A stretch of 64,000 nt of DNA from Clostridia bacterium (GCA_017507215.1 JAFWBI010000003.1:15687-79686); one strand, 5' to 3'; shown: positions 1 to 47,158, numbered from the stretch's first letter. The notes: generated by a model from the letters alone, not told the origin. A program made the numbers and translations.

Positions 1-1440
1 GCAAGTGTTGACAAGATGATGCAAGAATTTGTTAAATTCAGCAGTACATACAAAGGTCCAAGTGCAAACTTTGCAAGCGAACTTAAGAAGTATGCTGCTG
101 GTCTTGGAAAACAAAACGAAGAAATGATTAATAAGATTTACAAGAAATATGCAAATATGTTCAGGGGTGGCTTAGGCAAGCTTGAAAATAGTCCAGTTGC
201 TGTTCAACAAAAGAAGATTATGGAAAGCTTTGCTGCAGAACTTAGAAAGTGTCAACAAAGAGTTACTTCAAAGGGTAAGATTCCATCAACTGCTGAAATG
301 AATAACATGTTTGTTGGAAGAACATTCACTGGAGCAACAACAAGAGCTGAAGTTGCACTCCACAGACAAAACGCTGAAGAACTTTCAAGACTTGTGAAAC
401 TTATTAGAGACCAAAAGAACCTTATCAGTTACGATAGTTTGGCCAGCCGTGTAAGTTCAACATTTATGGCTGACTTCATGAGAAATAATCCAAATATTGG
501 CAAAAAATCTGAACAAGCTAAGAAAGCTATGCTTGAGAGTTACTTCACACAAAAACTCAATGAAGCTCTTAAGAAAGCTCACAATGACAACTATCAAAAA
601 TCTGACAAGAACCAACTTGAAAGACTTAATGGTAGAAGAGTGAAGAGAAGCGAAATTGACCACTCTAGGGTATCTCCAGTTCTTGCAAATGCAATGAAGA
701 CTGCAGATAATCCAGCATATCAAAACATCGTTCGTGAATTTAAGTCAGCAACTGAAAAAGTTAAGAACGAACAATTTGCACACGATGAACTTGTTGCAGC
801 TTTGAATAGACTTAAACAATTGCCAAGAACTCCAAAGAATATTGGTAAGACAATTGAACTTCAAAAAGCTGTTGAACAATCTAAGGTTAAACTTAGAACA
901 TTAAACAACATTTTAACTAATGCTAAGAAGAGAAAAGCAGACTACGAAAGAGCGTTTGCTTCAACTGAAATAAAAGAAGCTAAGGCTTCATCAAGGGCTC
1001 GTGCTTATAACAGCTCAACTAGCGTTATGGATAGATACACATTCCCTAAGAAAGATGGAACAGTTATTCAACAAGGTACACAAGATGCTAAACAAGTTCA
1101 AATGCTCGTTACTAATTATGTTCAAAGCTATAGACAAAATATTGAATCTATGCTTAAGAACGAAATTATTGCAAGCAACAACAACTTGAGAAAATACATT
1201 GACGGTATGAGAAGCAAGTTCACTGCCGACTTCGGTAGAAATATGAGATATACAAGAGAAGTTAAAGCAGAACTTAAGAAGTATATCGCAGAGCTTGAAA
1301 AATCAACAAAAGTCGAAGATGTAAGACTCAGAGAAGAACTTATTAGACGTATCGGAGTTATCGATAAAGCTGAACTCACTCTTGAAAGAAGAATGACTGG
1401 TATGAACATCGATATCGCTAACGTTAAACTTAGAAAATAA
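1..1440 (+). CDS. Lys/Glu/Gln-rich, predicted helical soluble protein of unknown function; probably 5'-truncated by the window edge
   Basis: Frame 1 is open from nt 1 (GCA AGT GTT GAC AAG ATG ATG, no stop before the ATG at 16). At least 474 aa with no hydrophobic segment and long basic heptad-like stretches. Same strand as the following ATPase gene and only 106 nt upstream of it. I recognise no family. Confidence 0.6.
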   Translation, partial: ASVDKMMQEFVKFSSTYKGPSANFASELKKYAAGLGKQNEEMINKIYKKYANMFRGGLGKLENSPVAVQQKKIMESFAAELRKCQQRVTSKGKIPSTAEMNNMFVGRTFTGATTRAEVALHRQNAEELSRLVKLIRDQKNLISYDSLASRVSSTFMADFMRNNPNIGKKSEQAKKAMLESYFTQKLNEALKKAHNDNYQKSDKNQLERLNGRRVKRSEIDHSRVSPVLANAMKTADNPAYQNIVREFKSATEKVKNEQFAHDELVAALNRLKQLPRTPKNIGKTIELQKAVEQSKVKLRTLNNILTNAKKRKADYERAFASTEIKEAKASSRARAYNSSTSVMDRYTFPKKDGTVIQQGTQDAKQVQMLVTNYVQSYRQNIESMLKNEIIASNNNLRKYIDGMRSKFTADFGRNMRYTREVKAELKKYIAELEKSTKVEDVRLREELIRRIGVIDKAELTLERRMTGMNIDIANVKLRK

Positions 1441-1456
1441 TAGGAAAAATCAATAA

Positions 1457-1484
1457 ACTTTTGCCACAATTTTGTGGCAAAAGT
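1457..1484 (+). promoter_or_regulatory. Perfect inverted repeat / stem-loop between ORF1 and the ATPase gene (RNA stabiliser, weak terminator or palindromic operator)
   Basis: ACTTTTGCCACAA (1457-1469), TT, TTGTGGCAAAAGT (1472-1484) form 13-nt perfect complementary arms. The following sequence is CCTTATTG, so there is no U-tract and it is not a canonical intrinsic terminator. Confidence 0.5.
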
Positions 1485-4231: not shown

Positions 4232-4255
4232 TAAATAGGAGACAAAACTAGAGTT

Positions 4256-7200
4256 ATGATTAGACTATATTCATTTTTAATAAGTTTATTTTCGGCAGAG
4301 CGTGGCTCTAGTTTTTTGTCTGCTGCTGGTGGAATTTGGGGCTTCTTTGGAGTGCTTGGAAAGTTTATCGTTCGAGTTATCGCAAACTTTTTTGCAAAAT
4401 GTGCTAACTTCTTAAAAGAAGCTTCATGGGCCATCATTAAATTCGTACTTGGAATTGTTGATGCTTTTCAATTCATGATTGAAGAATTTTTAGGTATTTC
4501 TAGAGATTCAGAAGGTATGATGCACGGTGTGACCGTTGACGAAATGGTTACATATGCAGAAAACAACCAATCTGGGGCAACAAGTTTCCTTTCAGTACTT
4601 TCAACAACATTCAGAGCTATTTTAGCTGTTTCAATTGTGCTTTTGATTATCTTTACAATTATTGCAATCATAAGACAAGAGTACACTGCAGCAACTCAAG
4701 CAGCTTCTGACGGCAACAGCAATGATAAACGACCTATCATTATGGGTATGTTTAAAAAGATGCTTTATATCATTTTGTTGCCTTTGACAATGATATTTAT
4801 TATTACTGGTGTGAATTCCATTCTCGCTGCGTTTTCTCGAGCTATGAGTGGACAGGTGAATATGACTATTGCGTCACAAATTCTCGCCACTTCAACTTAT
4901 GACTCGAATAAATATCGTTATTACGCGCAACAAGATAGAAGGGTTCCAATCGTTATCAACACATATAATCCTGACGATTATGACCCAGATGAAAATGATT
5001 TGCTTGTTCAAAAAATCAAATCAATTTCAGTTCAAGGTAAGTTGCAAGACACAATTGTTAACATTAACAACAGAAACTTGTTGACTTTCAAAGAAGCCTT
5101 GACATACAAAAATAACAGACTGACAAACAGTGTTGAGTATGGTGATTTCTATGAACAATTCATCTGTACTCCTGAGCAATATCAAGTTATGGCTGACTTT
5201 GTTGATTATGCTCAAAAAACAAACTTAAACTTCCAAATCAGGTCACTTGATGACCCAGCAATCGAATGGAAATATGTTGATTCAGCCGTGTTCAATGCAA
5301 ATGATGTTTCACTTAAAATCAACTATCACGATTTGAACGATTTGAACAATAATGGAAGTGTTAAAGATTCATACACAATTGAATATTCAACAAGTTTTGA
5401 AGTTACATCTCCAATCACCGATTCAATGAAGACTATTCAAGCACTTCTTGGTATTGATGAGTATGCTGATAATCTTTATAAGACAATGGAAAGAGATGAA
5501 AATTCAGTTAACCTTGTTAACTGGCAAAATGAGAAAGTTTTGATTCAGCTTTCAGAAGACTTTGTGTTGAATAATCCAAGTTCATGGAGCAGGTTAGACC
5601 AACTCATTATGTATGAATATTATCACTTTGCTTCAAACAATACTTTTGGAAACTATTCAATTCAAGATTTGATGGAAGGCGTTGAACTTGACGCTGCGCA
5701 AATCGTTTATAGAGAATATTATCCTGAAGCAAATGCTTATTCAGCAGAAAGAACAAAAGATTGTGTTAAAATCAATGGTTCATATTACAACACCGTTAAA
5801 GACCCAAGAAAAACCGATTCTTATGGAAATGTTTATTACGTTTTGAAAGATTCACTTGTTGATGAAAATGGTGTTAGCGTTAGCGACACAACATTCTTAA
5901 ACAACGAATATGCAAGAATTGAAAAAGTTGAAGGTAGTGCAGCAAGATTGCTTTTGACAGGAAAGAGCACAGGTTTTAATGTTAACAATCCTGCAACTTG
6001 GGCATATTCAGACCAAATTTTAATCTATGAATTTTTCAGTGATTTAACATATAACAACATGCTTTATATCTACGATTTTAGTGAATTTATGGGTGTTGAC
6101 ACCAATGATGATGGCGACCTTGACAAATTCGTAGATGTTCCTGTTTATAAAATCACACATGCTGGTTTAGACGGAACAACTGAAAAAGATGATTTAAATG
6201 GCATTTATGTTCTTTTGAATGGAACATATTATAAAGTTAAAGAAGCAAATTCTTCTATCTATCATGGTGACACCGGTGTTAATCTTTATTCGCTTTGGGG
6301 AGATAAAGATGACACATCAAACAACTTCATTAATGAAGCAACACCATACACAGATAATTTGTATTATAATTACACAATAACTCTTGATGCTGGTTATGCT
6401 GATGCTTATGGCATCACAACAGAAACAGGTAATGCACTTTCTGCAGACCATATTGTGAGCAGAGTTGAAACTGCAACAAACATTAGCACTTTAACACCTG
6501 CATTTGTTCCTCTTGAACAAGACGATACTAACTATTTGAAATATAGCAGTTATTCAATTTCACTTTCAAGAAACTTTGACTTTGCAGATGTAAACACTTG
6601 GACATATAAAGATTACTTCTTATTCTATTTGTATTCATGCTATCCAAAAATTACTGGTAATTTAGGTCTTGATTCACTTAGAATTGCTGGACTTTCTGGA
6701 AATGTTGGAAAAATTGGTGGAACTTATGTTTTCCAAGTTAAGTATGATAAATACAATCCAGGTGGTGGCGTTCAAGATTTATATCTTTATATCGATATTG
6801 ATAAGTCACGTGCAATTTCAGACATGCTTATCAATAGAAAAATTAATTCAATCAACCTTGGACAGCTTATGACAGCAAATAGGGTTGATAACACAAATGA
6901 ATTGTTTATCAACGTTAATGTTGATGATTTAAAAACTGCACACAGTGAAGTGCATAAATTCAATCTCTCTGAAGGATTCTTAGAAACCGTTCCAGGAAGT
7001 TGGACAGTGTTAGACTATATTTTATACACATTCAGCGAGCAGGATAAAATTTCTTCAGTAGCTGATATTAAAGAAAAGGGATATTCTTCAGTTAAGTATA
7101 TCTTAGAGAATGATGTCGTTTATCAACTTGGACCATCAGCTGAAAAAACATACTTGAGCTTAAATGGAATCAATTCACTCGTTGATATTGATAACAACTC

Positions 7201-10200
7201 ACTCAATTTCTTAACAGAAAGAGATTTCTTAGAAATGCCACTTGTTGACTATATTGCAAAACTTTATAGAACAACTTCAAACGAACTTGTGACAAATGAA
7301 GATGGCGTTGTTGATGCTCTTTATAAAGAACTTTCACCATATATCTATGATATTGACACCATGATTGAAATGATTGTTAATAAAAATGGATTTAAACTTG
7401 ATAGTTCAATCGACCCAGCAAGCCCTAACAAGTTTGAAGTTTTCGATAATGTTTCAGAGTTTACATACACACCACTCCCTGGAACAAAAGTTAATGAGAT
7501 GTCAACTTGGACTAGATTTGATGAACTTTTATATGCACTCACTGGTTCATTCCAAACAAAATATACATCAAAAGTAATATATTACAACGATGATAATGGA
7601 ACGACAGATGATGCAACTGACGACACAGAGTATAAGTATTTCGTTGTTGGAAATTATGCTGTTGATATTTCTTCTGACGAAGTGGAAAACCCTGTAGACC
7701 CAGGCAATATGATTGATAATCCATTTAAGTCTACACTTGTAGATGGAAACGTTATCAATTCACCAGACACAAGTTTTGTTGTTGGAACTGACACAATTGA
7801 TGTGTTCTATCAAAATAGATACAAAGATTATGTCATCACAAAAACACCACTTGCTTATAAAAACACAGCAACAACATCTAACTTCGATAGAACATATAAG
7901 AATTTGACTGGTAACAGCATTGTTATTAACACAACATATAATTTATATGTTATTTCATATAATAATGAGCTTTATGTTGAAGTTTATAATGATGATACAA
8001 ACACTTACTATTATGTAAAAATAGATTCTTATTCAACAAACGCTATTGTTTCTGATGTTCAACCTGAAATTGTGAATGGATTTAAAGTTACTGATTATGC
8101 AAATAGTAAATTTAAATACACAAGGGGATTGTCATCAAGCACATATACAGCATTTGATATTGTTTATGAAAAGCTTATGGGGACAGCTTTATTAGTAAAC
8201 ACATCTGTTGAATACGATGTATTCTCAGTTAACGGAAAATTATATATTGAATTTAATAATTCTGGCGTTTTATATTATTTAGAAGTTACAGAAAGTTACG
8301 GCTCAACATTCTCAGTAATGAAGAAGTCGTCAATTAATCCTGTTGACACGGCAAAAGTTGCTGTTGTTGACCCAATGACTTTCGTGTCATTTAATAACAC
8401 TATTGACGAAGAAAGTAATGACCTTCAATTAAGTTCATTAAACTATTCAAAAATCGACGCAATCATTTATTCGATTACTGGCGAAATGAATTCAAAAACA
8501 TATTCAGTGTATAATCGCGGTGGGGAGCTTTATACATATGTTGATAATCAATATGTTAAGGTTAATGATGATTTAGTTGCTAATAAAAACACAGGTCATT
8601 TAGCTGAAAATGAAACAGAATTTCCAACAATCACGCTTAATCCAACAAATTATCAAATTCAAAGCGCACCTGTTTCAACATTATATGAAAACTATTATGA
8701 AAGTTTGATTGTTGAAGTTATTGGTTCAGTAATAACAGCAAGTGCAACTGAGGTTACTTATAGTTATGTTAAAAATGATGCAAGATTAGATATCACAAAT
8801 ATCTCACCATTTGCTTTAATCTTAGCAAAGAAAGGCTTAATCAACTTAAACACAACTGAAGAAGTTGAAATTTCTGGAACCGTTGTAACATCACAACGTG
8901 GCAGAAAATATTTCAAATTCAATGGTTCTCTTAATGGAAACCCACTTCAATTTAATGTGGATATTACAGATATTGCACACACATTTGTTGATGAAACAGA
9001 CACATCAAGTGTTAAACTTATCGATAATGCTGTTGCAAAATATGAAATGGTTTTAAGATATATGCTTTTGAACAATGGGGTTACAGAAAGCGAATATATT
9101 TCATCACTCACTTCATATAAGAATGACAGACAAGATTATTATGAAGTTCTTACAACTGATAAAAACACATTGAAAACTCCAATTGAAAAAACAGCTGGTT
9201 TTGATTTTAAAGAGCCAACTGCATCTGATTGGACAATCTATAACCTTTTGGTTTATAACCTTACTGGTTTTGCACCAGCAGAAGAAGCGATTGTTTACAT
9301 CGACGCTGCTGGTAACAGATATGTTGAAATCACAGATGGCATGAGCAGTGTTTATACTCAAATTTCACTTGGAACAAATATTATCTCAACATTGTTCACA
9401 AAGATTGAAACAACATCTGTAAACTATGAAAAGAAGAATGCAAGTGGTGAATATACTCCACTTGGAATTATTGCTTCAAAAGCAACAGATGTAGATAATG
9501 GCACAATCACTAAAGTTTTAGTTGATGATATGAATTTCTATTTCTTAGTTGACGGAATTGCTGGAACATATTCAGCTGTTTACGGACTTAATGAAGATGC
9601 TATTAGAAGCAAAAATACAGAAGGTCTTTATTCATATTACTTTGCAGGAAGTGCAACAGTTTCTAACTGGTCGGTGTTTGACACACTTATTGCACTCGTT
9701 GCAAACACAACATCTTCAAAAACATATCTTTCAAATATTTATATTTATGGCTCAAATGCCTACTATTTAATTAATGAAGATTTTGTTAACCTTTCAAAGA
9801 TTCGAGTGCTTACAAGCGCAGGGGTCGACAATATCTTTAATAGAATCGGTGACGATGCTCTTGATATCAATTATCAACTTTCACCAGCCGTTACACCACT
9901 TAAAAACTTTTACAATTCAACAACAGTAGGACATAAGGCTGTTACGGTTATTGATGACATCAACTCACTTGTTCCTGATGTTGATGACGATGATGATGAC
10001 GATGAAGAAAGCAACAGAATTTATTTCTCAGAAGATTTTGATATTAGTGATTTTTCAACTTGGACACATGCAGATTTGATTTTATATTACATGTTTGTTG
10101 AATATCCAAATTATTTCTCAAATGCATCTGTTACAATTTCAAACTTCCAACAATTGATTGAACAAGGATATGCTCCTGCATACGAATTTAATCACATTGT

Positions 10201-13200
10201 TGATGATGGTTTTGGCAACACTGAAATCGCAAAAGTTATTTGGGTTGGTGTTGATGAAACCGGTGGAACAGGCGTTGCTCTTAACAAGGCAGTGTTCCAA
10301 ACATATTACAATAAACTTGTTACAAACTTTGATAGCATTATTGAAGGAGATGTTCTTAAATATTCAATCGGAACAACAGCTCGTGACCTTCCAGCAACTT
10401 CAGACCCAGTGCCTCAAACAATGACAAGTTTCTATATCACAAAGAATATTGCATTAAACACAAATGATTTCATTTATGAAAACTATTTCTATTTCACACT
10501 TGAATATGGTTACATTAATAATCTTTTAGCTCAAGATTATAGTGCTATTGGTGCAGGAACAGGACAACTTGAAACTTCAATCAATATTGCACTTGGTCAA
10601 AATCTTGGAACAGACATTGAAGACAGAAAAGGATTTGATATTTCAAGACCTGAAACATGGACATGGCTTGAATTTATTGTAATTTACGAATTTTCAAATG
10701 TTTCAATCAGACATAATTTCTTTGAAGGTATGAGTTTTGATGATTTGTTTGTTGATAACTATGTTCCAGTGTTCACAAACGATAGAAATGAATTCATTAT
10801 TGAATTTAATGGAAATTATTACAACTTGAATGCGATTGATTATGTACATGATGGCGACGAAGCAAAACTATCAAGTGCAGAAATTGCTTCAATTATTGAG
10901 AGCAGAATTCAAGTTGAAGAAGATGATGGTGGAGATGTTCTCACAGTTGACGATGCAGTTCATGCAGGTTCAGACACCAAGTCGCAAATGAAAACACTTC
11001 GCTACACATATGAATATATGGCTAAAAAAGAAACAGATTATGCTCTTAACTACACAAAGACACCTGAAAGCATTTTATATTCATATAAAGATAGTCCAAG
11101 TGGCAAAAACTCAGCAACATTTACTTATATGAGCACAACATATAATTTCTATGTTGATGCTGATGGAAATGTTTCTTTTGACGGGGCAACAGAAACAATT
11201 TTAAGGGGAATCTTTGGAGCAAGTTTTACAGCTTCAGCTGATATTGCTGACGGAAAAATTACCATTGGTGGAAACACATTAAACTTTAAAGTTATTGAAA
11301 ATGGTACAATTTATTATTTAACACTTAACACGGAAATCATTCAAACTTATCAAATTAGTTTTGCAAGTTTGAACAGTGCTGGCAACTACACAATCACAAA
11401 TGTTGTTAGAATTGTTAACTGGCCACAAAAGTTAATGAATGATATTCAAACAATTTACCCAGACCTTAACTGGGCAACACTTCTTGCAACCGATGGTTGG
11501 CTTGATACACTTGGGGTATTCACATCAGCTCAAGCATCTGGTGAATATGAAAGTTCAGGAAACTCTGCGAACATCACTGCTGCAGGTTTGGTTCTTTCAG
11601 AATTCTTCTTATCTGTTATCAAAATGCCTGAAGATTTCACTTCAAGACTCGAATATGAATATATTCCTGTGTTTGATACAGACACAATCAAAGCTTTGAT
11701 GCTTTCAATGCTTGGTGAAGAAGAATATCACGACCTTTCAATGCAAGCAGAAGTGTTTATGGATATGTTCAACGAATTCTTCGTTCCAATCTTAGAAGAC
11801 ATTGCTAATGAACGTGGGGTTGAACTTGTTGAAGGAAAAGTTGATAACTTCTATATCAGCGTTTATAAAGCATTCCTTGCAACAGTTTTAATGTCTTCAG
11901 ATATGGCTGAATATTTCTATAAAATTGCAACAAGAGTTTACGCTCAATACACAATTTTAGACGCTCTTGCAAGTGCAAGTGGCGACTATGCAGCATATAG
12001 CAAATATATTAATATGCTTAGTGGAGCAGATGATAATGGCGTAACATCATTCAACTACGCAAATTTCCATCAGCTTACACTTTATGAAAATAGTTTCTCT
12101 GGAAACACAAATCCAACATTCACATTCAATATTCATTCAACAATCAATGGTCTTTATGGTCAAGGCTTAACATATAGAAAACTTTCAAATCAAGGTTATG
12201 CAGTTGTGAACTCAACTGGCAATGAAGACAAAAAAGTTACAAAAGCTGATGCTAAGAAAACATTTGAAAATGAAGACAACTTTGCAAAACTTGTTGATGA
12301 CCTTGATACAAAATATGAAGCTATTTATATTGATAGCCACTCAAGAGTGAAAGATAACAATGAAACGGGGTATTATTGTTATTTGTTTGACGCATATTGG
12401 TCAATCAGACAAAATCTTGATGACAGAAATATGCTCAGTACAACATATCTTGCAAACTATCACAAATATCTCTTAGGTGAAATCAAGAGATGGTATCACA
12501 TTTCTGATGTTAGCACGGAGCAAGCTTCAGCTTATATTCCAGACCAACAATCATATGAAATGAACATGTTGCTTTCAAGTGTTATGACAGAGCTTGCAGG
12601 TGTTTCAATTTATATGCCAGACGCAGACCAATTTGAAATCGAAGAAGGTGACAACCTTTGGGACGTTATTAAAGAAGCTTATGACACTGCAACTCAAAAC
12701 TCAGACCAAGTTTTGAAAACTACATTCAAAAACAACACAAATCTTTATAGTGATTATAGAAGAGCATATGAAAATGTATTTGATATGAGCAATAAGTTAA
12801 TCGGAAACGATGTAACTGGAATTTTAGGAATCATGAGCAAGTCTGAAAAAGGCGATACATCTGAAACCTATAGAGTTAAATTAACACAAACCGAAACAAA
12901 GAGAGTTGACGCGTGGAACAGACTTCTTTCTATGCGTGATGACCTTGAAATTTTGGTTAATGAACTTGGTTCTGTAATTGATGCAGCTCCTGGCTCTTAT
13001 GTTGAAGGAGATAATTCAAGGGGTTACAGAGACCCAAGCATTGATGATGGAAGATATGCGAAGGCTTATGAAGAACTTCAAAACTTCTACACAAACCTTG
13101 ATACATATATTTCAAATCAAAAAATAATTGATATTATTTATAAGACAAGTATCACATTCACACTTGCACAATTTGGTAAAAACTATGTAACCGAAGGATA

Positions 13201-15913
13201 TAAGTTTGAATTTGAAAACAAAGAATATACACTTAAATCTGCATCATCACCAGAAAGAATTGCTGAATATGTTTATGGTGGTGCGTTCCTTGCAAGATAT
13301 GGTGTTGCAGCTGTTTACACAACTCCTGAATATCATGGTTTTGTTGAGAACTATAGAGTTTATGATTCAAAAGAAAATGTTATAAAAACCCACTTAAACG
13401 TTTGGACTGAAATGCGTTCATTTGCTTCAGAACTTGCAAATTACACAGCAAGGCTCTATTACTTAAGTAACATGAACGACCTTTCTGGAAACGTCGGAGA
13501 TGCAATTTTATTAACAGATACTGTTTATAAAGGAAAATCTTCAGGTGGTGCTTCTGTTGATAGAACACTTGAACATATGATTTTGGAATATATTCTTCAA
13601 AGCGACCTTTCAGCTGATACTTTATTAAGACTCATATTTGGTGATTCTTCAGAATCACTTGATGACTTAAACGTTGACCCAGCAAAAGAGATTTATGCAC
13701 TTGCATATTTCCTTGAAGGCAAAAACTATACAACCAATAGTGACACGGGCAATATTAGAATTGAGATTGGGGAAGACCCTGACAAAGAAATTTTTGAAAT
13801 GAGCAGCTATAATAAGCGTCAATATCTTTCAAAATATCTTGAACTTGTTGCAAATGATGCAAGTTATGATTCATTTGGATATTATCACGATGGTTCAAAT
13901 ACCGGAAAAGATAGAATCCACACAATCTTCAAAAAGGTTATTTCATATTTAGTTGTAACCGAAGAAGAAGGTGAATCTGTTGCAGAAGATGCTGTTAAAC
14001 TTGATGATATAACATTTAAAGATTTCAGAAAATTGATGGTTAAAACACTTGGTGAATATGAAAAGAATCCAAGTGAAACCGATTTAGAAAACTCAAATCG
14101 TTACATTACATTGTTTAACTTAGTATGTTCACAATTCAGCTACACATATAAGGCAAGTTCAGAAGATATTGAAGCAGGAACAGCTGTAAGTGCTGTTTAC
14201 GCTAAAAATATTGATGGCAGAGCTTACTATATTCATCAAACAAACACTGGTTTAATGGATATTCCACTTTATGCAGACTTCTCAATTGACGTTCCAACAA
14301 GAGATATTATATTAACTCTTGCAGGTGTTGCAAACAGACCAATCGAAGAACTTGTTGGTCTTGAATACGACAATTTATACGCATCAGATGAAGAGTATGA
14401 TGAAGCTGATGGCGATGTATTCATTGTTTGTACGTATGATGAAATGGAAGGATTGTATTATCCAATTCTCGCTAGAAATCCAGATACAGTTATTCCTCAA
14501 AGACATAAAGATTATATTTCAAAGTATAATATTGATGTAACTACAAGGATTATTGAATCTGACTATGGTTATCCAATTGTTGCTAAAGGTGTAATTGATG
14601 CCGCAGGAAATCCAACAGCAATAAAAATTGTAAACAATTCAGTGTTGTTCTATAGAACAGGAATCACAACAACAACAACTGTTGGAGAAGGTGCGTTGTC
14701 GTATACTAAGAGTGGTGGTGAAATCACAACTATTGGTTATACAAAATATGTGGCACACACATATAAAAACGCAAAGGGAGCTGAAAAGATGGCAATGTTT
14801 ACGGGTTCGTCAAACATTGACACAATGATAAACTCAAAGATTTTGTTCTACTTCATACAGGTTGATGATTTGTATTCAATCACAGATGAAACAAACTTTG
14901 ATGCGATTTCAGTTCTTGACCAATTCTCAGCGTTCTACACGCTTGAGAGCAAACAATATGCGATGTTCCTTTTAGGATTCGCAACTATTATACCTATGCT
15001 CTTTAAAGCATCTGGTGCCGTTCTTAGAAGAATTTTAGATTTGATATTCTTAGTTTTAATGGGACCACTTGCCATTTCTGCAACTGGAATAGCTCCAGAA
15101 CAAGGTGGAAACACAAAGAGTAAGATATTTGATACTTGGAAGAACTATCTGACGCAGACGTTGCTGCATGTGTTTGGATATATAATAGCATTTAATGTCT
15201 ACTACATATTAGTATCAACCGTCTTGCAGATGGAACTTGTTTCAGATAACACTATGGATATGATTTATCGCATTGGTGGCTTATCTGGAATCATCACAAA
15301 AGATAGTGTTAACGCATTTATGCGTCTTATTTACACACTTTGTGCTGCTGGTGCGCTTGAAACTTCTGCAGACCTTCTTGTTAAGATTGTTACAGCAGGA
15401 AAAGCAGACCAAGCATTCTCAACAGCGATGTCTAAAGACGTTATGGGCGATGTTAAGAAAGTTGTTCAAGAAATCAAAGCGAAAGCTCAAATGGCTAAGA
15501 ACTTCATTAACGGAAAAGTTATCGTTCAGGCAAAAGACTTTGCTCTGGAAACAGCCAAGAATATTGTTCCTGGTGGAGCTGTAATCGACGCAGCTGTTCG
15601 AAAGGGACAAGATATAGCATCTGATGTTAAAGGAAAAGTTCTTGAAAAAGGTGCTGAAAGACTTGGCGTTCCTCCACAAATCGCTAAGAAGATGGGCAAA
15701 CAATATGCTGAAAATGAAAAGAAACAACGTGATGCAAAACGTCAAAACAGAACTAAGAATGCAAACGAATTCTTAGGTAACTTTGGTGTTGGCGATGGTA
15801 AATTCTTTGATGCTCCACCACCAAGTGCCGGAAAAGGCAAAAAGCCAAAAGGCAAAGGTGGCGGCGGTGGAAAGAAGAAAAAATCGTCAAAGCCAAAAAA
15901 GAAAAAGAAATAA
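4256..15913 (+). CDS. Giant (3885 aa) polytopic membrane/surface protein in the VirB6 gene position; N-terminal TM module, ~3300-aa ectodomain, C-terminal TM module, polybasic tail
   Basis: An uninterrupted 11,658-nt ORF with RBS TAGGAG 10-15 nt upstream, starting 24 nt after the ATPase stop. Hydrophobic segments lie at aa ~20-75, ~110-140 and ~165-195 (nt 4256-4860). More lie at aa ~3565-3680 (nt ~14950-15300; MFLLGFATIIPMLF, LIFLVLMGPLAISATGIAP, LLHVFGYIIAFNVYYILVSTVL). The middle is N/Y/T/D-rich, nearly Cys-free, and contains repeated modules. The tail is GKGKKPKGKGGGGGKKKKSSKPKKKKK. The VirB6-like call rests on gene order and topology only. Confidence 0.7.
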   Translation: MIRLYSFLISLFSAERGSSFLSAAGGIWGFFGVLGKFIVRVIANFFAKCANFLKEASWAIIKFVLGIVDAFQFMIEEFLGISRDSEGMMHGVTVDEMVTYAENNQSGATSFLSVLSTTFRAILAVSIVLLIIFTIIAIIRQEYTAATQAASDGNSNDKRPIIMGMFKKMLYIILLPLTMIFIITGVNSILAAFSRAMSGQVNMTIASQILATSTYDSNKYRYYAQQDRRVPIVINTYNPDDYDPDENDLLVQKIKSISVQGKLQDTIVNINNRNLLTFKEALTYKNNRLTNSVEYGDFYEQFICTPEQYQVMADFVDYAQKTNLNFQIRSLDDPAIEWKYVDSAVFNANDVSLKINYHDLNDLNNNGSVKDSYTIEYSTSFEVTSPITDSMKTIQALLGIDEYADNLYKTMERDENSVNLVNWQNEKVLIQLSEDFVLNNPSSWSRLDQLIMYEYYHFASNNTFGNYSIQDLMEGVELDAAQIVYREYYPEANAYSAERTKDCVKINGSYYNTVKDPRKTDSYGNVYYVLKDSLVDENGVSVSDTTFLNNEYARIEKVEGSAARLLLTGKSTGFNVNNPATWAYSDQILIYEFFSDLTYNNMLYIYDFSEFMGVDTNDDGDLDKFVDVPVYKITHAGLDGTTEKDDLNGIYVLLNGTYYKVKEANSSIYHGDTGVNLYSLWGDKDDTSNNFINEATPYTDNLYYNYTITLDAGYADAYGITTETGNALSADHIVSRVETATNISTLTPAFVPLEQDDTNYLKYSSYSISLSRNFDFADVNTWTYKDYFLFYLYSCYPKITGNLGLDSLRIAGLSGNVGKIGGTYVFQVKYDKYNPGGGVQDLYLYIDIDKSRAISDMLINRKINSINLGQLMTANRVDNTNELFINVNVDDLKTAHSEVHKFNLSEGFLETVPGSWTVLDYILYTFSEQDKISSVADIKEKGYSSVKYILENDVVYQLGPSAEKTYLSLNGINSLVDIDNNSLNFLTERDFLEMPLVDYIAKLYRTTSNELVTNEDGVVDALYKELSPYIYDIDTMIEMIVNKNGFKLDSSIDPASPNKFEVFDNVSEFTYTPLPGTKVNEMSTWTRFDELLYALTGSFQTKYTSKVIYYNDDNGTTDDATDDTEYKYFVVGNYAVDISSDEVENPVDPGNMIDNPFKSTLVDGNVINSPDTSFVVGTDTIDVFYQNRYKDYVITKTPLAYKNTATTSNFDRTYKNLTGNSIVINTTYNLYVISYNNELYVEVYNDDTNTYYYVKIDSYSTNAIVSDVQPEIVNGFKVTDYANSKFKYTRGLSSSTYTAFDIVYEKLMGTALLVNTSVEYDVFSVNGKLYIEFNNSGVLYYLEVTESYGSTFSVMKKSSINPVDTAKVAVVDPMTFVSFNNTIDEESNDLQLSSLNYSKIDAIIYSITGEMNSKTYSVYNRGGELYTYVDNQYVKVNDDLVANKNTGHLAENETEFPTITLNPTNYQIQSAPVSTLYENYYESLIVEVIGSVITASATEVTYSYVKNDARLDITNISPFALILAKKGLINLNTTEEVEISGTVVTSQRGRKYFKFNGSLNGNPLQFNVDITDIAHTFVDETDTSSVKLIDNAVAKYEMVLRYMLLNNGVTESEYISSLTSYKNDRQDYYEVLTTDKNTLKTPIEKTAGFDFKEPTASDWTIYNLLVYNLTGFAPAEEAIVYIDAAGNRYVEITDGMSSVYTQISLGTNIISTLFTKIETTSVNYEKKNASGEYTPLGIIASKATDVDNGTITKVLVDDMNFYFLVDGIAGTYSAVYGLNEDAIRSKNTEGLYSYYFAGSATVSNWSVFDTLIALVANTTSSKTYLSNIYIYGSNAYYLINEDFVNLSKIRVLTSAGVDNIFNRIGDDALDINYQLSPAVTPLKNFYNSTTVGHKAVTVIDDINSLVPDVDDDDDDDEESNRIYFSEDFDISDFSTWTHADLILYYMFVEYPNYFSNASVTISNFQQLIEQGYAPAYEFNHIVDDGFGNTEIAKVIWVGVDETGGTGVALNKAVFQTYYNKLVTNFDSIIEGDVLKYSIGTTARDLPATSDPVPQTMTSFYITKNIALNTNDFIYENYFYFTLEYGYINNLLAQDYSAIGAGTGQLETSINIALGQNLGTDIEDRKGFDISRPETWTWLEFIVIYEFSNVSIRHNFFEGMSFDDLFVDNYVPVFTNDRNEFIIEFNGNYYNLNAIDYVHDGDEAKLSSAEIASIIESRIQVEEDDGGDVLTVDDAVHAGSDTKSQMKTLRYTYEYMAKKETDYALNYTKTPESILYSYKDSPSGKNSATFTYMSTTYNFYVDADGNVSFDGATETILRGIFGASFTASADIADGKITIGGNTLNFKVIENGTIYYLTLNTEIIQTYQISFASLNSAGNYTITNVVRIVNWPQKLMNDIQTIYPDLNWATLLATDGWLDTLGVFTSAQASGEYESSGNSANITAAGLVLSEFFLSVIKMPEDFTSRLEYEYIPVFDTDTIKALMLSMLGEEEYHDLSMQAEVFMDMFNEFFVPILEDIANERGVELVEGKVDNFYISVYKAFLATVLMSSDMAEYFYKIATRVYAQYTILDALASASGDYAAYSKYINMLSGADDNGVTSFNYANFHQLTLYENSFSGNTNPTFTFNIHSTINGLYGQGLTYRKLSNQGYAVVNSTGNEDKKVTKADAKKTFENEDNFAKLVDDLDTKYEAIYIDSHSRVKDNNETGYYCYLFDAYWSIRQNLDDRNMLSTTYLANYHKYLLGEIKRWYHISDVSTEQASAYIPDQQSYEMNMLLSSVMTELAGVSIYMPDADQFEIEEGDNLWDVIKEAYDTATQNSDQVLKTTFKNNTNLYSDYRRAYENVFDMSNKLIGNDVTGILGIMSKSEKGDTSETYRVKLTQTETKRVDAWNRLLSMRDDLEILVNELGSVIDAAPGSYVEGDNSRGYRDPSIDDGRYAKAYEELQNFYTNLDTYISNQKIIDIIYKTSITFTLAQFGKNYVTEGYKFEFENKEYTLKSASSPERIAEYVYGGAFLARYGVAAVYTTPEYHGFVENYRVYDSKENVIKTHLNVWTEMRSFASELANYTARLYYLSNMNDLSGNVGDAILLTDTVYKGKSSGGASVDRTLEHMILEYILQSDLSADTLLRLIFGDSSESLDDLNVDPAKEIYALAYFLEGKNYTTNSDTGNIRIEIGEDPDKEIFEMSSYNKRQYLSKYLELVANDASYDSFGYYHDGSNTGKDRIHTIFKKVISYLVVTEEEGESVAEDAVKLDDITFKDFRKLMVKTLGEYEKNPSETDLENSNRYITLFNLVCSQFSYTYKASSEDIEAGTAVSAVYAKNIDGRAYYIHQTNTGLMDIPLYADFSIDVPTRDIILTLAGVANRPIEELVGLEYDNLYASDEEYDEADGDVFIVCTYDEMEGLYYPILARNPDTVIPQRHKDYISKYNIDVTTRIIESDYGYPIVAKGVIDAAGNPTAIKIVNNSVLFYRTGITTTTTVGEGALSYTKSGGEITTIGYTKYVAHTYKNAKGAEKMAMFTGSSNIDTMINSKILFYFIQVDDLYSITDETNFDAISVLDQFSAFYTLESKQYAMFLLGFATIIPMLFKASGAVLRRILDLIFLVLMGPLAISATGIAPEQGGNTKSKIFDTWKNYLTQTLLHVFGYIIAFNVYYILVSTVLQMELVSDNTMDMIYRIGGLSGIITKDSVNAFMRLIYTLCAAGALETSADLLVKIVTAGKADQAFSTAMSKDVMGDVKKVVQEIKAKAQMAKNFINGKVIVQAKDFALETAKNIVPGGAVIDAAVRKGQDIASDVKGKVLEKGAERLGVPPQIAKKMGKQYAENEKKQRDAKRQNRTKNANEFLGNFGVGDGKFFDAPPPSAGKGKKPKGKGGGGGKKKKSSKPKKKKK
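5570..10700 (+). repeat. About 11 degenerate protein-level modules inside the giant ORF, each marked by a W-[ST]-x-x-D-x-hydrophobic-hydrophobic-Y motif
   Basis: Strong copies are SWSRLDQLIMYEY (~5581), TWAYSDQILIYEF (~5995), TWTYKDYFLFYLY (~6595), SWTVLDYILYTF (~7000), TWTRFDELLYAL (~7505), DWTIYNLLVYNL (~9230), NWSVFDTLIALV (~9665), TWTHADLILYYM (~10060) and TWTWLEFIVIYEF (~10657). Weaker copies are YTAFDIVYEKL (~8150) and YSKIDAIIYSI (~8445). Each is usually followed by a Tyr-rich hairpin-like element such as NGSYYNTV, NGTYYKVKE, ELYVEVYND..YYYVKI, KLYIEFNNSGVLYYLEV, ELYTYVDNQYVKV, NRYVEITDG or NGNYYNLN. The nucleotide sequences have diverged, so this is not a collapsed assembly repeat. 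Confidence 0.7.
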
Positions 15914-15945
15914 AAAATAAAAGTAGTACGGGAGAGAAAAAATAG

Positions 15946-18900
15946 ATGGGGTTAATTAATTCAATTAGTACAGTTCCGATGACTCTGATGAAGTTTGCTT
16001 CATCTATTTTCTCATCTGTACCGAATTTCTTGGCTGCAAAGGTTGGTTTTGAAGGAGCTGTTTCTTCATTATTCAACGGTATTTCAAAAATAATGTATTT
16101 TGTGGCAAAGTGGATGCTTTATGTGCTTGATATATTATTTTCGTTTATAAGGCAGCTTAGTGGTTTGGAAATGAAATATGATTCACTTGAAAGTATGGTT
16201 TCAAAAGAATCCGATTTCGTGTTTAATATGTTGTTTACGGCAACAGACTTAATCAATCCAATCATAAGGAATTTAATTGGTCTTTCAATTGCACTTATTA
16301 TATTCTTTGCAATACTTGCAGTTGTAAAAACACAATTCAATTCATTAAAAAGCAAAACACCAGCAGATATTAAAGGTGTTTTAAAAGACACAGGTAGAGC
16401 ATTTGTTTTACTCATTGTTACTCCAATGATAGCGATTATGGGTATCGTTGGTTCAAACTTGTTGTTGCAATCGCTATATCGAGCGACGAACACAACAAAC
16501 TCAAACAGTATAAGTTCTTCGTTATTCTCAGTTTCTGCAACTTCTGCAAGTGCATATCGAATATATGCTCAAGAAGATATGAGAATACCGATAACATTTG
16601 ACTTTACTGAACACGCAGAAATTCTTGAATATTATAAAAAACATGCAATAACTAAAGAATTTAGAGAATATGTTAGTTCAAGCAAAAACCTGATTTATTA
16701 CTTGGGTTATAAACCATTTACTGAAGGTAAGTTTTCTGCATTTTCAACCATGAATGATACTAGGGTTATAGACCCGAACAGCACTCAGGCTGTTAATGCA
16801 AAAAACTATTATCAGGTTTATGACAGAACACAAGAAGCTTATGAAGCGTTAAATTCAACAACAGTAAATTCGTATAAGAAAATCTCAGCATATAGGCCAG
16901 AATATTTTGTTATGGCTGATGTAATTGATTTTGGTATTGAAACTTCAACAGTGATGTATTTCAAAACCATTCAAGAAGTGCTTGAAAGCATTTCACAAAC
17001 AGGTGATGATTATCTATTCAATTCAACAGTTGCGCTTTATAAGATTCAATTCTTAGATTCTGATTTAAAAGTGATAAAGCGTCAGTTTGAATCTGTTGAC
17101 ACAGCAACTGAAACTGCAAGCTCTTATGCTACTTATAAAGAAATTTATAAGGGAAGTTGGAGTGTGATTCGATTCACAAGCACTTATTATGATGTGAATG
17201 CCGAATCAGAACCAACTAAGAAAATGCAGATTCAATATAACCATGTCAGAGATGCTGTCGATGAAATTCAGGGCGCAAAATTCATTATGACTGTTCAAGA
17301 AAACTTAAAAAGAACAGAAACAAGACAAGAGTATGTTGAAGGTGCGTTAACAACAATAACCGAAGACGTTGTTCACACATATTACTATCCACTTACTATT
17401 GGACTTTCACAAGGTAATGAATTTGTATTTGATTCAGAATATATTCAAACTGGACAGCTTATTGCAGCAAAAGGTGTCTTCTCGCAAGAAAGATATGGAT
17501 ATCCTGTTCCGACAGCGATAAGAATTTCAGAAGATGGTTCAGAAGTTCAATTTTATAGACATGATATCGAATCGGTAACAGTTGGTGACTCAGACCAAGC
17601 TGGTACTGGTACGATGAAAGCAGAAGAAGATAAAGGTGGATTTTTGAGCTGGATTAAGAAATTATTTGCGTTCTTAAATCCAAATTTCGATGTTAAAATC
17701 GACCAAGATGCACTTGTTACGGCATATCAATATTCAGAAACAGTTGTAAATGTTTTGCCATCAGGTAAACTTAACGTGAGTTATATGTTTGAAGATGGAT
17801 TTAGTAACAACCTTTTGAACTTTGCAACTGGTGTTGTGAATGTTGTAAATGCTTCAAAAGGTGAAGAAAGTGTTGAGCAAATGGGCATTCACGGACTTCT
17901 TTTAGAAAACGTATTTATTCCAAATAAAATAAATATGATAATCTTAATCTGTGGTTCGTTAATGCTTGTTAAAATCGTATTCACTGCGATATTCCAGCTG
18001 ATAAATAGAGGATATGAACTATTCCTGACGATAATTGTTTATCCAACGGCATGTGCAACAATTCCAATTATGGATAAAGACGATGGCTATAAAACGTGGA
18101 TGACGACGTTTGTCAGCAGGCTGTTCTCGACGTATGGTTTGGTTTTGGGTTTAAACTTCGTTTTGATGTTGTTCCCAGTTATTGCTGAACTTGAAGTTTT
18201 CACGGCTGGTGAAATTGCACTTTCTAAACCAATTATGAGATTTAGAAACTTATTCAGCACAATTCGAACGGTTGCGACAATTGGTATCGTTCAAGCCCCA
18301 ATCAGTTTTGAATTCTTAGCAGGATTCTTAAACATGGTTGTTGTCATCATATTCCAACTTGTTGCATTCACACTGCTTGAAACTATTCCAGAAACAATCA
18401 ACAGAATCACAAAATCTGCTCCACTTAGAGGTGTTAACCCAATCGAATCAGCAAAGAAAGTTCTTAAAGTTGTTGCTGCTATCGTTAAGACGATTTCGTC
18501 GGTTGTCGGTGGTATCAAAGACTTTATTATGATTGCTGGTGATATTGGTGGAAAGCGTGAAGAATTCATCAGAAATGCAAAGATGAAAGTTAAAGGATTC
18601 TTGCCTGGAAGTGAAATTGTTGAAAGTGCTAAAGACTTTGGCAATATGCAAAAGAAGAAACATGAGCAGAAAGAAGCCATGAATGAGCTTAAAGATGCAA
18701 TGAATACTGCAAAAGTTTCGGGCAAAGATGAAAAAGATAAAACTCCTGAAGAAAAAGAACAGGATAAGAAGAGTGCAAAAGAGATTCAAGAAAAATTCAA
18801 TAAAGTTCTTGAAGCTCAAGATAACTATCAAAAAGCTATTGCAGACCCTAGGGGCAACCGTTTGGCTGAAGATGACAAACGTCGTGCTAATGAAAGAAAG

Positions 18901-20151
18901 GGTCTTGATGAAAACGGAAGAGTAAGTTCTAGAGATGAAGGTGATGATGAAACAGGTTTATCACACAGAACAAAACGTCAACTTCGAAAAGAAAAGAAGC
19001 GTGCAAGCAAGATTGTTAAGCGTCTTAAAAAAGAGCAGAAGTTGGCAAATAAAGGAAAACGTGGAGAACTTACAGAAGCTGAACAAGCATCTCTCAATAA
19101 ATACACTAAGATTTTAGAAAATGTAAATTCTGCTCAACAAGAACAAAAGAAAAACGGAAAAGAAATTTCTCAAGCTAAGAAAACCATTAAGAAACTCACC
19201 AAGAAACGTGGTGAAACTTCTTTAAATGCCGAAGAAGAAGCTCAACTTAAAGCTGCAGAAGCTACTGTTGAAGAGGGAGAACAAAGAAAAGTTGACAATA
19301 AAAAGGCTAGAACAGACGAAAAAGTTGAAAGAAAAAAAACAGCTAAAATTAGAAAGAAACAAGAAAAACAAGAACAAAAGAACAAAAAGATTTCAAGGGC
19401 ATTCAAGAGAACTGGTCTTGGTGCAAAGATTGCTCAAAAACGTTATATGAAAGACGTGAACAAACAATCTAATAAAATTCAAGAAGCTTTGAATGCAACG
19501 GGCTATATGGGTAAACGTCTTGAAGATATGACTGCCGAAGAAAGAAAGCAGACTATGGAAAGTGGAACATTGACCGAATCGCAAGTGGAAATGTTTAAAA
19601 CTTATGAAGCTTTGCAGACTCAAAAATCTGAAAATCTTGGTTATGCTGATGCTGTTAATGCTTCAAAGGCTGCTCAAGGTGCAAACGGTTTAAGAATGAA
19701 AAACAGGTTCAAGGCCGGAAGACGAAGTGGCAACAAAATTCAAAAGAAATTGATGCAAACTGAAGAAAGAGATGCTCAAGAACTTGAGAAAATTGAAGCC
19801 GAACTTGAAAGTCTTGGTGCTACTGGAGATAACAGTGGCGTGACTGCTGCAAACCTAGGCAGAGTTAGAAAGCTTAAACAACGCAGACAAGAGCTTCTTT
19901 CAAGAGAACAATTTAGAGATTATTGGTCTGGTAAAAAAGGCGCCGACGGAACACGAACTGGTGGCAGAAACACTAAGACTAAAAAAGAAGTTAAGAAAGA
20001 AAAGAAGGGGCTTCAAAAGCGTGGAAGAATTCAAAGGGATTTGGTTGAACAATACGGAACCGATATCTCAGAAGAAGAACTTTCAACCAGAACAAATCAA
20101 AAACTTGAAAAGAAAAAGAAGAAAAAGAAAAAAGATACTTCTGATTACTAA
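15946..20151 (+). CDS. 1401-aa polytopic membrane protein, paralog of the giant protein (shared N- and C-terminal membrane modules), with a ~520-aa Lys/Glu/Arg-rich C-terminal tail
   Basis: RBS GGGAGAG precedes the start, 32 nt after the giant ORF stop. Blocks alignable with the giant protein include YRIYAQEDMRIPITF vs YRYYAQQDRRVPIVI and PEYFVMADVIDFG vs EQYQVMADFVDYA. The TM segments NLIGLSIALIIFFAILAVV and FVLLIVTPMIAIMGIVGSNLLL also align. The second TM cluster spans nt ~17920-18400. From nt ~18540 the sequence is low-complexity and charged, ending KKKKKKKKDTSDY. Confidence 0.7.
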   Translation: MGLINSISTVPMTLMKFASSIFSSVPNFLAAKVGFEGAVSSLFNGISKIMYFVAKWMLYVLDILFSFIRQLSGLEMKYDSLESMVSKESDFVFNMLFTATDLINPIIRNLIGLSIALIIFFAILAVVKTQFNSLKSKTPADIKGVLKDTGRAFVLLIVTPMIAIMGIVGSNLLLQSLYRATNTTNSNSISSSLFSVSATSASAYRIYAQEDMRIPITFDFTEHAEILEYYKKHAITKEFREYVSSSKNLIYYLGYKPFTEGKFSAFSTMNDTRVIDPNSTQAVNAKNYYQVYDRTQEAYEALNSTTVNSYKKISAYRPEYFVMADVIDFGIETSTVMYFKTIQEVLESISQTGDDYLFNSTVALYKIQFLDSDLKVIKRQFESVDTATETASSYATYKEIYKGSWSVIRFTSTYYDVNAESEPTKKMQIQYNHVRDAVDEIQGAKFIMTVQENLKRTETRQEYVEGALTTITEDVVHTYYYPLTIGLSQGNEFVFDSEYIQTGQLIAAKGVFSQERYGYPVPTAIRISEDGSEVQFYRHDIESVTVGDSDQAGTGTMKAEEDKGGFLSWIKKLFAFLNPNFDVKIDQDALVTAYQYSETVVNVLPSGKLNVSYMFEDGFSNNLLNFATGVVNVVNASKGEESVEQMGIHGLLLENVFIPNKINMIILICGSLMLVKIVFTAIFQLINRGYELFLTIIVYPTACATIPIMDKDDGYKTWMTTFVSRLFSTYGLVLGLNFVLMLFPVIAELEVFTAGEIALSKPIMRFRNLFSTIRTVATIGIVQAPISFEFLAGFLNMVVVIIFQLVAFTLLETIPETINRITKSAPLRGVNPIESAKKVLKVVAAIVKTISSVVGGIKDFIMIAGDIGGKREEFIRNAKMKVKGFLPGSEIVESAKDFGNMQKKKHEQKEAMNELKDAMNTAKVSGKDEKDKTPEEKEQDKKSAKEIQEKFNKVLEAQDNYQKAIADPRGNRLAEDDKRRANERKGLDENGRVSSRDEGDDETGLSHRTKRQLRKEKKRASKIVKRLKKEQKLANKGKRGELTEAEQASLNKYTKILENVNSAQQEQKKNGKEISQAKKTIKKLTKKRGETSLNAEEEAQLKAAEATVEEGEQRKVDNKKARTDEKVERKKTAKIRKKQEKQEQKNKKISRAFKRTGLGAKIAQKRYMKDVNKQSNKIQEALNATGYMGKRLEDMTAEERKQTMESGTLTESQVEMFKTYEALQTQKSENLGYADAVNASKAAQGANGLRMKNRFKAGRRSGNKIQKKLMQTEERDAQELEKIEAELESLGATGDNSGVTAANLGRVRKLKQRRQELLSREQFRDYWSGKKGADGTRTGGRNTKTKKEVKKEKKGLQKRGRIQRDLVEQYGTDISEEELSTRTNQKLEKKKKKKKKDTSDY

Positions 20152-46400: not shown

Positions 46401-46409
46401 GGGGTGTTT

Positions 46410-47099: not shown

Positions 47100-47101
47100 A
47101 G

Positions 47102-47136
47102 AAAAGCGTGGCATTTTGCTACGCTTTTGTTGTTTT
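47102..47136. terminator. Bidirectional terminator between convergent sigE and sigG
   Basis: AAAAGCGTGGCA / TGCTACGCTTTT hairpin (one G-U) flanked by A-rich and T-rich runs. Confidence 0.6.
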
Positions 47137-47158
47137 GAGATATGAAGTTTAAGGTCTT

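Follow-up and report, generated by a model that had tools for sequence, protein, structure and literature searches.

What are the two giant proteins encoded side by side in a 64,000-nucleotide stretch of Clostridia bacterium DNA (GCA_017507215.1, JAFWBI010000003.1:15687-79686), and to what machinery do they belong? This whole stretch is called the window below, and coordinates refer to it. The first protein, of 3885 residues (4256..15913, + strand), is denoted A, and the second, of 1401 residues (15946..20151, +), is denoted B; a further giant gene, P1, reaches into the window from upstream. Our analysis suggests that A, B and P1 are three ancient paralogs of a polytopic channel subunit, known from Mollicutes as CDS16, Mbov_0396 or MMCAP2_0566, that here would serve a monoderm type IV secretion system (T4SS). 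We give this reading a probability of roughly 0.75. All three proteins share a chassis of ~320 residues, consisting of three membrane helices, a break and three to four more helices, with a lineage-specific domain placed at the break.

Homology and architecture of the three giant proteins

The first-pass annotation had described A and B as paralogs with common terminal membrane modules around unrelated central regions. In composition-corrected BLASTP, the N-terminal regions match each other (A 114-232 with B 102-216, E=4e-9), as do the C-terminal regions (A 3557-3843 with B 679-951, E=0.006). The pairwise alignment lies largely within membrane helices and its C-terminal E-value is only 0.006, so the resemblance might be taken for a by-product of hydrophobic composition with no homology behind it. 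Family profiles speak differently. They were built from 22 B orthologs, six N-termini of A orthologs, and six A C-termini from loci upstream of B orthologs (a word-index search with the A N-terminus had returned five contig-end fragments only, and a later one with a diverse alignment almost nothing more). In hhalign, the A-ortholog profiles matched the B family at a probability of 99.8 in both cases: the N-terminal one aligned A 17-346 with B 19-372 (316 columns, E=3e-30), and the C-terminal one aligned A about 3267-3817 with B 318-871 (491 columns, E=1.8e-28). These alignments include long non-membrane stretches, and A and B have invariant non-hydrophobic motifs in common. We also ran hidden Markov models (HMMs) of the N and C modules on all open reading frames (ORFs) of at least 120 residues in the window and 41 related loci (42 sequences, >700 kb). 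They matched proteins of the A, B and P1 types only; FtsW, MraY, LspA and other membrane proteins in this set gave no match. Therefore, the likeness does not stem from hydrophobic composition. That explanation retains virtually no chance of being right and can be considered already refuted by these comparisons, while the paralogy of A and B is confirmed.

The terminal modules are thus alignable, as had been claimed, and the blocks originally aligned by hand recur in the same register in hhalign. These are FLKEASWAIIKF... with GISKIMYFVAKW..., AILAVSIV... with LIGLSIAL..., KYRYYAQQDRRVPI with AYRIYAQEDMRIPI, PEQYQVMADFVDYA with PEYFVMADVIDFG, LIFLVLMGPLAISATGI with LFLTIIVYPTACATIPI, FDTWKNYL with YKTWMTTF, and LHVFGYIIAFNVYYIL with STYGLVLGLNFVLMLF. 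The nucleotide positions quoted earlier for the motifs are correct within a few bases. Hydropathy gives both proteins the same plan, with three N-terminal and three to four C-terminal membrane helices and a Lys-rich end. The idea that both proteins use a common membrane chassis for outer domains of widely differing size (about 3,300 residues in A, about 400 in B) likewise stands. The "unrelated central regions", in contrast, hold only in part. A does contain an insert of ~2,900 residues without a B counterpart, but the outer domain of B is homologous to both ends of that of A, and A contains an equivalent of almost every part of B before residue about 870. Because the two profile alignments match up in this way, A can be described as a B-like core with ~2,900 residues inserted in the middle of its outer domain. 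The B outer-domain HMM matches on both flanks of the insert in compact A-like proteins from other genomes (1,722-1,967 residues).

The N-terminal module of A (4373..5293, +) comprises three membrane helices (residues about 40-250) and, up to residue about 346, the conserved first part of the outer domain next to the membrane, with the motifs YRxYAxxxxRIPI and EQYxVMADFIDY. The central insertion (5294..14053, +; about 2,900 residues), rich in Thr, Asp, Tyr, Asn and Ser, is predicted to be extracellular. It has no Pfam match, and its length varies strongly among orthologs, the gap between the two modules of A-class proteins ranging from 1190 to 3312 residues. Self-BLAST at 1e-3 revealed no internal repeats in A. 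A motif of ~20 residues, F-D/N-x5-S/T-W-S/T-x2-D-x2-L-x-Y, is present in at least six copies in the insert (residues 442, 780, 1083, 1803, 1934 and 2133; nt about 5579-10660) and is often followed after 60-80 residues by NGxYY, which suggests that the insert is built of very divergent repeated domains. The middle of the outer domain has a poly-Asp/Glu run, DDDDDDDEE (9977-10005), which appears as a 12-nt tandem repeat; DNA tandem-repeat scans gave nothing relevant. Beyond the insert, the membrane-proximal end of the outer domain (14054..14935, +), homologous to the B outer domain (hhalign E=1.8e-28), has the motifs YDEAxGDxFVVC and YPIxAKGxI...PTAIKxV...VxFYR. It leads into the C-terminal membrane module (14936..15430, +; residues about 3561-3725), with the hallmark GP-x8-...-F-D-T-W-K, and a short tail of about 160 residues (15431..15913, +) that is Lys/Gly-rich and predicted to be cytoplasmic. 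The module HMMs match the N and C modules of A with E-values of 1.6e-23 and 3.3e-7, respectively.

B repeats this layout on a smaller scale: an N-terminal membrane module (16057..16650, +; residues about 38-235), an outer domain (16651..17865, +; residues about 236-640), a C-terminal membrane module (17866..18435, +; residues about 641-830) and a predicted cytoplasmic tail of about 570 residues (18436..20151, +), rich in Lys, Glu, Ala and Arg. A first AlphaFold2 model, built from 14 sequences, was of insufficient quality across the membrane part (predicted local distance difference test score, pLDDT, of 56), and a fold search with it was meaningless. The second model (B 1-885, 46 sequences) reached a pLDDT of 77 and a predicted template modelling score of 0.75. 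It features long helices at residues 35-72, 100-136, 142-181, 664-704, 713-747 and 788-821, those of the N-terminal module at pLDDT 80-93, and a compact alpha/beta outer domain at pLDDT 70-97. In both proteins, as in several P1 orthologs, a motif of the form hydrophobic-P-G-[GS]-x-[IV] lies 40-60 residues past the last helix (A, VPGGAVI, residues 3771-3777, nt about 15566-15586; B, LPGSEIV, residues 886-892, nt about 18601-18621). This motif is a candidate docking site for the ATPases.

The third paralog enters the window as ORF1 (1..1440, +), whose frame is open from base 1. The suggestion that ORF1, a Lys/Ala/Glu-rich helical and predicted cytoplasmic segment, might be the tail of a third family member is borne out. 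A gene call on a 230-kb metagenome contig (L001; related loci and contigs bear L numbers), which encodes an identical VirB4 protein and matches the start of the window, gives P1 a length of 5289 residues, and ORF1 corresponds to the last 479 codons of this gene crossing the window edge. Moreover, an exhaustive profile search with the B chassis retrieved a protein of 4253 residues (P0170) whose last 479 residues (3775-4253) are 88% identical to ORF1 and which has both modules, N at 37-215 (hhalign E=7.6e-35) and C at 1210-1370 (5e-35). In seven more distant genomes the upstream protein is complete (2,313-2,927 residues) and also has both modules. The last 3297 residues of P1 lack hydrophobic segments and are enriched in Ala, Lys and Glu; neither the P1 tail nor the P1 outer domain has a Pfam match. 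Two assemblies with identical VirB4 differ in the length of the giant upstream gene (5289 residues in L001, 5301 in L002), which indicates that the P1 tail is polymorphic in length within the species. A weak gpW match on ORF1 (E=0.001) had raised a phage tail or tape-measure reading, which was rejected in view of the chromosomal T4SS context. Directly past the P1 stop and ahead of the VirB4 start, consensus scans found a perfect stem-loop of 12-14 bp (1457..1484, +) followed by a promoter-like site (1495-1523); together they may separate P1 from a VirB4-A-B transcription unit.

The concatenated N and C modules of 42 proteins (366 columns) were placed in a neighbour-joining tree, in which the A class forms a clade with bootstrap 86 and the B class one with bootstrap 62, while P1 is interrupted by one long branch alone. 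Each class also has its own architecture. P1-class proteins have an outer domain of about 1,000 residues and tails of 760 to >2,800; the A class combines outer domains of 1,190-3,312 residues with tails of 114-181, and the B class outer domains of 258-492 residues with tails of 90-797. Given the class clades and class-specific architectures, the triplication is older than the divergence of these genomes. The same two observations argue against swapping of outer domains between classes. The chassis is the best-conserved part of A/B-type proteins, and the wider family comprises 1,890 representative, unannotated clusters at E<=1e-3, with proteins of 800-7,309 residues. If our reading is correct, several multi-kilobase "hypothetical" genes in gut metagenome-assembled genomes (MAGs) become nameable as T4SS channel-subunit paralogs.

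The neighbouring VirB4 and the link to Mollicutes transfer proteins

Between P1 and A lies a gene (1547..4231, +) encoding 894 residues with an N-terminal membrane hairpin (residues about 24-68). Its product matches P-loop_TraG (2.7e-19), DUF87 and AAA_10 in Pfam, VirB4 in the PDB (4ag5, 7.7e-53) and, over its full length, NF045975 of NCBIfam, the "Mbov_0397 family ICE element conjugal transfer ATPase" (595.1 bits, cutoff 590), where ICE stands for integrative and conjugative element. The P-loop motifs GKSGCGKS (Walker A) and VVIDEAH (Walker B) are present, and its sole full-length matches on plasmids are Spiroplasma ATPases of the Mbov_0397 family. Judged by sequence, it is a VirB4 ATPase of the Mollicutes-ICE type.

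The giant proteins themselves, whose identity the first-pass annotation had not recognised, lead to the same source. A and B match NF045848 (MMCAP2_0566 family conjugal transfer protein) and NF045889 (Mbov_0396 family ICE element transmembrane protein) with whole-protein E-values of 1e-15 to 6e-7. In A, both halves of NF045848 are matched in order within one protein, the N module covering model positions 8-178 (4.6e-8) and the C module positions 166-313 (3.5e-7). In B (1.1e-15), the best-scoring stretch, residues 658-803, covers positions 187-293, and a second stretch is also reported. Because the N and C modules match positions 8-178 and 166-313, the chassis can be viewed as a protein of ~320 residues split near model position 170-185 by the outer domain. 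The module HMMs match Spiroplasma and Mesomycoplasma hyorhinis proteins in the same order, with the modules contiguous and no gap between them. In hhalign, the chassis profile matched a Spiroplasma Mbov_0396-family protein with a probability of 93 and E=3e-7, and a further comparison gave a probability of 64; the motif P-x8-D-x-G-x-F/Y-x-x-W is common to the chassis and the Spiroplasma protein. Thus, as far as sequence comparison can tell, the closest homologs are proteins of Mollicutes ICEs. CDS16, the Mollicutes protein, is essential to transfer of ICEA (PMC6030558) and is regarded as a likely VirB6-like component in a 2025 review (PMC12857230). A large Mollicutes protein encoded 3' of VirB4, CDS19/Mbov_0399, was also considered as a possible homolog of A and B and rejected: it has one C-terminal membrane helix and no module matches.

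With six to seven hydropathy segments, that is, at least five helices, and genes located beside VirB4, A and B resemble canonical VirB6/TrbL proteins in layout and gene position. They also conform to the description of "extended VirB6" proteins, which combine at least five hydrophobic helices with large central or C-proximal hydrophilic domains (PMC12857230): the central domains measure about 400 (B), 1,000 (P1) and 3,300 (A) residues, and the tails about 160 (A), 570 (B) and 3,900 (P1). The compact mobile-element form of ~300-400 residues is not what we see here, since the proteins have 1401, 3885 and 5289 residues and their genes are chromosomal and syntenic.

Related loci complete the picture of a secretion cassette. 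Its full order in relatives is VirD4, two pilin-like genes, P1, VirB4, A-like and B-like. VirD4 is encoded on the strand opposite to P1, upstream of it (PF02534, 6e-46; NF045973, 283 bits, cutoff 250), and the pilin-like proteins, of 100-130 residues with two membrane helices each, match PF18895 (T4SS_pilin) and the Mbov_0395 family pilin-like model (NF045849). The giants therefore stand beside both a Mbov_0397-type VirB4 and, in relatives, a Mbov_0395-type pilin-like gene. VirD4 and pilin genes were seen upstream in five loci (L035, L036, L040, L041, L042), and pilin-like genes also in L037. In L042, where the B ortholog is 79% identical, the series reads VirD4, pilin, pilin, P1 (4253 residues), VirB4 and A-like (3850 residues). 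A conserved protein of 966-1020 residues, encoded beside VirD4 on the same strand (L035 3213-6110, -; L040 3181-6240, -), may represent a T4SS partner, for instance a relaxase, that has gone unrecognised; its 966-residue form has no Pfam, NCBIfam or PDB match.

Like those of adhesins, the outer domains of A and B are of enormous size, evolve quickly, look repetitive and abound in Thr, Asp, Asn and Tyr, and they contain no recognisable T4SS domain. Could A and B, then, be surface adhesins or wall-associated fibre proteins that use a CDS16-related anchor and act independently of the neighbouring ATPase? We regard this as quite improbable. The arrangement P1, VirB4, A, B does not vary among any of the loci in which it is visible, with intergenic gaps of 24-106 nt; the chassis itself is the most conserved portion of the proteins; and its Mollicutes homolog is required for conjugative transfer (PMC6030558).

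Several results nevertheless weigh against a channel subunit. The scores of B against NF045848 and NF045889 (57.7 and 43.7 bits) lie below the curated cutoffs of 90 and 70 bits, as do those of the A N-terminus (32.7 and 29.2 bits) and C-terminus (29.8 bits). We attribute this to the insert splitting the model; the P1 ortholog in L036 scores 90.3 bits against the NF045848 cutoff of 90. The canonical VirB6/TrbL family PF04610 is not matched by A or B at E<=0.1, so that sequence does not show them to be members of it. A Foldseek search of the PDB with the second B model returned no solved fold at E<=1e-3, and its T4SS-related rows were insignificant (DotA-IcmX protochannel, E 1.1; an R388 chain, E 4.4); a profile search of PDB sequences with the family gave only noise and no VirB6. 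VirD4 and the pilin genes come from relatives, L042 being the closest, and for this genome the content of P1 codons 1-1,992 is deduced from orthologs. No VirB1-like hydrolase or VirB8-like component was recognised in the cassette, which would be unusual for a walled monoderm. Finally, topology, co-assembly and function are all inferred.

A probably fixed chromosomal cassette

The kinship with Mollicutes ICEs raises a further question: is the cassette part of an active ICE or another mobile element, with the giants acting as mating-channel or mating-pair-formation (MPF) proteins for self-transfer of DNA? Their closest named relatives are indeed conjugation proteins of Mollicutes ICEs and Spiroplasma plasmids, the VirD4 coupling protein is of a conjugative-transposon family (CD1115), and the protein of 966-1020 residues beside it could be a relaxase that escaped recognition. 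The genomic setting, however, makes this unlikely. In >20 genomes the cassette precedes the same chromosomal neighbours, lspA-rluD-tig-clpP-clpX, even though B is just 30-57% identical to that of the window, and in L035 and L040, the two loci with enough upstream sequence, comEC-holA-gpr come before it. A more distant lineage has a different but again housekeeping context, the cassette being followed by gapA, mnmA, trpS/tyrS and proS. Within the flanks scanned, no integrase, transposase or relaxase family was recognised, nor were element boundaries or variable presence seen, although a relaxase could lie farther away in the genome. The pairwise identity of B covaries with that of ClpX (Spearman 0.58, p=1.5e-9) and of Tig (0.50), compared with 0.67 for Tig and ClpX; at the same time B evolves much faster, being 30-57% identical where ClpX is 78-91% identical. 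Searched by tblastn against 72,556 plasmids, the chassis found nothing. Synteny and co-divergence with core genes thus point to a cassette that is probably chromosomally fixed and vertically inherited.

M. hyorhinis offers an observation of its own. A four-gene cluster of pilin-like, Mbov_0396, VirB4 and Mbov_0399 genes (L044 6796-15205; NZ_LR214949.1, 593728-602137) follows dprA and is flanked by genes for ribosomal proteins and the DNA polymerase III alpha-subunit; further ICE genes are absent within 20 kb. In the collection, this 843-kb record bears the label "plasmid 3". Mollicutes, too, may therefore possess a fixed chromosomal copy of the module.

Proposed working, known systems and the host

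How might such a machine be arranged? Lys is abundant in the tails and in the loop joining helices 2 and 3; Thr, Asp, Asn and Tyr are abundant in the inserts, and the number of chassis helices is even. From composition, the positive-inside rule and the even helix number, we infer that the N-terminus and tails would be cytoplasmic and the inserts would face outward. The three chassis might co-assemble as a membrane translocon atop VirB4 and VirD4, with the outer domains crossing or overtopping the thick wall and contacting a target cell, and the basic tails either providing a scaffold in the cytoplasm or binding nucleic acid or substrate. The whole would then be a domesticated conjugation-type apparatus for contact-dependent transfer of either DNA or protein. 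A bolder version is that walled, spore-forming gut Clostridia have domesticated a Mollicutes-ICE-type machine into a core, vertically inherited cell-contact apparatus that has both a surface structure and a cytoplasmic megascaffold and exchanges DNA or protein with other cells instead of transferring an element. Inserts of up to 3,300 residues would form the wall-spanning structure, and tails of up to ~3,900 residues (about 5,500 in family members) the megascaffold. We offer this version as a speculation that is much more likely to be wrong than right; if true, the apparatus would have parallels in the T4SS that is essential in Patescibacteria and in the rvh system of Rickettsiales.

Mollicutes ICEs (CDS15/Mbov_0395, CDS16, CDS17/Mbov_0397 in ICEA of Mycoplasma agalactiae, in M. 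bovis and on Spiroplasma plasmids) have the same VirB4, chassis and pilin-like families. The gene order pilin-like, transmembrane protein, VirB4 is common to the cassette and M. hyorhinis, and transmembrane protein followed by VirB4 is found on a Spiroplasma plasmid. However, CDS16 of Mollicutes has 306-412 residues and contiguous halves, whereas here the protein is triplicated and split by inserts of 400-3,300 residues, with tails of up to about 3,900. In Mollicutes the module resides on an ICE with a DDE transposase; here it is a chromosomal, syntenic cassette in a walled spore-former. The large Mollicutes protein encoded after VirB4 (Mbov_0399/CDS19) lacks the chassis, unlike A and B.

In design, the closest parallel is found in Rickettsiales. 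Anaplasma phagocytophilum has the array sodB-virB3-virB4-virB6-1..4, with a VirB6-4 of 4,322-9,935 residues (PMC7648143). Such arrays share with our cassette the tandem paralogs of a polytopic subunit beside virB4, chromosomal location and vertical inheritance, giant hydrophilic extensions and multiplied pilins (PMC7648143, PMC12857230). On the other hand, they belong to the diderm MPF-T type of obligate intracellular Proteobacteria and carry a C-terminal repeat array, whereas the system described here is monoderm, with a central insert and no DNA tandem repeats found. The likeness is probably convergent.

In lifestyle, the T4SS of Patescibacteria (Saccharibacteria) would be the closest analogue. 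It is likewise monoderm and chromosomally fixed, with VirB4, VirD4, a VirB6-like protein, several PF18895 pilins and no obvious mobile element (PMC12857230, PMC12102498). It belongs to another phylum, though, and giant triplicated VirB6-like proteins are not reported there; conversely, VirB1-, VirB3- and VirB8-like genes are reported in Patescibacteria but were not recognised in the Clostridia cassette. Essentiality and an epibiotic role have been demonstrated for Southlakia only. Among Gram-positive VirB6-like proteins (PrgH, TcpH and those of the MPF-FA type), all polytopic and encoded beside VirB4/VirD4, MPF-FA members are already "extended", with 700-900 residues and added domains. With the libraries used, these proteins show no sequence match to A or B, and the present proteins are 1.5-6 times larger and occur three per locus.

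Extended-VirB6 paralog arrays are therefore known; what is new here is a Clostridia-borne T4SS of the monoderm type, fixed in the chromosome, whose VirB6-like subunit is triplicated and extremely enlarged. The locus links a transfer module supposedly specific to Mollicutes ICEs (pilin-like, CDS16, VirB4) to walled Clostridia, and the three-copy chassis, each copy with its characteristic outer domain and tail, is kept across many uncultured gut and rumen Clostridia. VirB2-like pilins in monoderms have been stated to occur in Patescibacteria only (PMC12857230). Their range appears wider, as NCBIfam already names a Mollicutes ICE pilin-like family and our locus adds walled Clostridia. The contribution of the added domains of "extended VirB6" proteins is "not yet known" according to the 2025 nomenclature review (PMC12857230). 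The cassette provides an extreme natural case for two open questions, how a T4SS crosses a thick wall and what the extended VirB6 domains do.

The window is bacterial chromosome with a GC content of about 34%, and nearly all of its genes are on the + strand. Downstream of the cassette follow lspA, rluD, two genes for small membrane proteins, tig, clpP, clpX and engB, and further on a complete division and cell-wall cluster: mraZ, rsmH, a penicillin-binding protein gene, murE, mraY, murD, ftsW, murA, ftsQ, ftsA and ftsZ. Sporulation genes lie at 45558-47929 and 51219-52391 (spoIIGA next to a sigma-factor gene, spoIIP and, on the opposite strand, another sigma-factor gene); a relative has gpr (L035, 2317-3168). 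Because both the division and cell-wall cluster and sporulation genes are present, the host is taken to be a walled, endospore-forming member of Clostridia. The related loci all come from uncultured "Clostridia bacterium" MAGs of the species-representative genome collection, from goat, sheep, deer, buffalo, mouse and human gut.

Beyond the cassette, a scan of the window with Rfam gave zero matches. Between ftsW and murA, a gene at 36759-38363 (+) encodes a 534-residue protein with a strong match to mTERF (PF02536, E=1.2e-59, four stretches), a family that is chiefly mitochondrial and plastid. The two small membrane proteins downstream of rluD, encoded by neighbouring genes at 21683-22012 and 22022-22351 (+), have 109 residues each and no family assignment; the pair is kept between rluD and tig in >20 related genomes.

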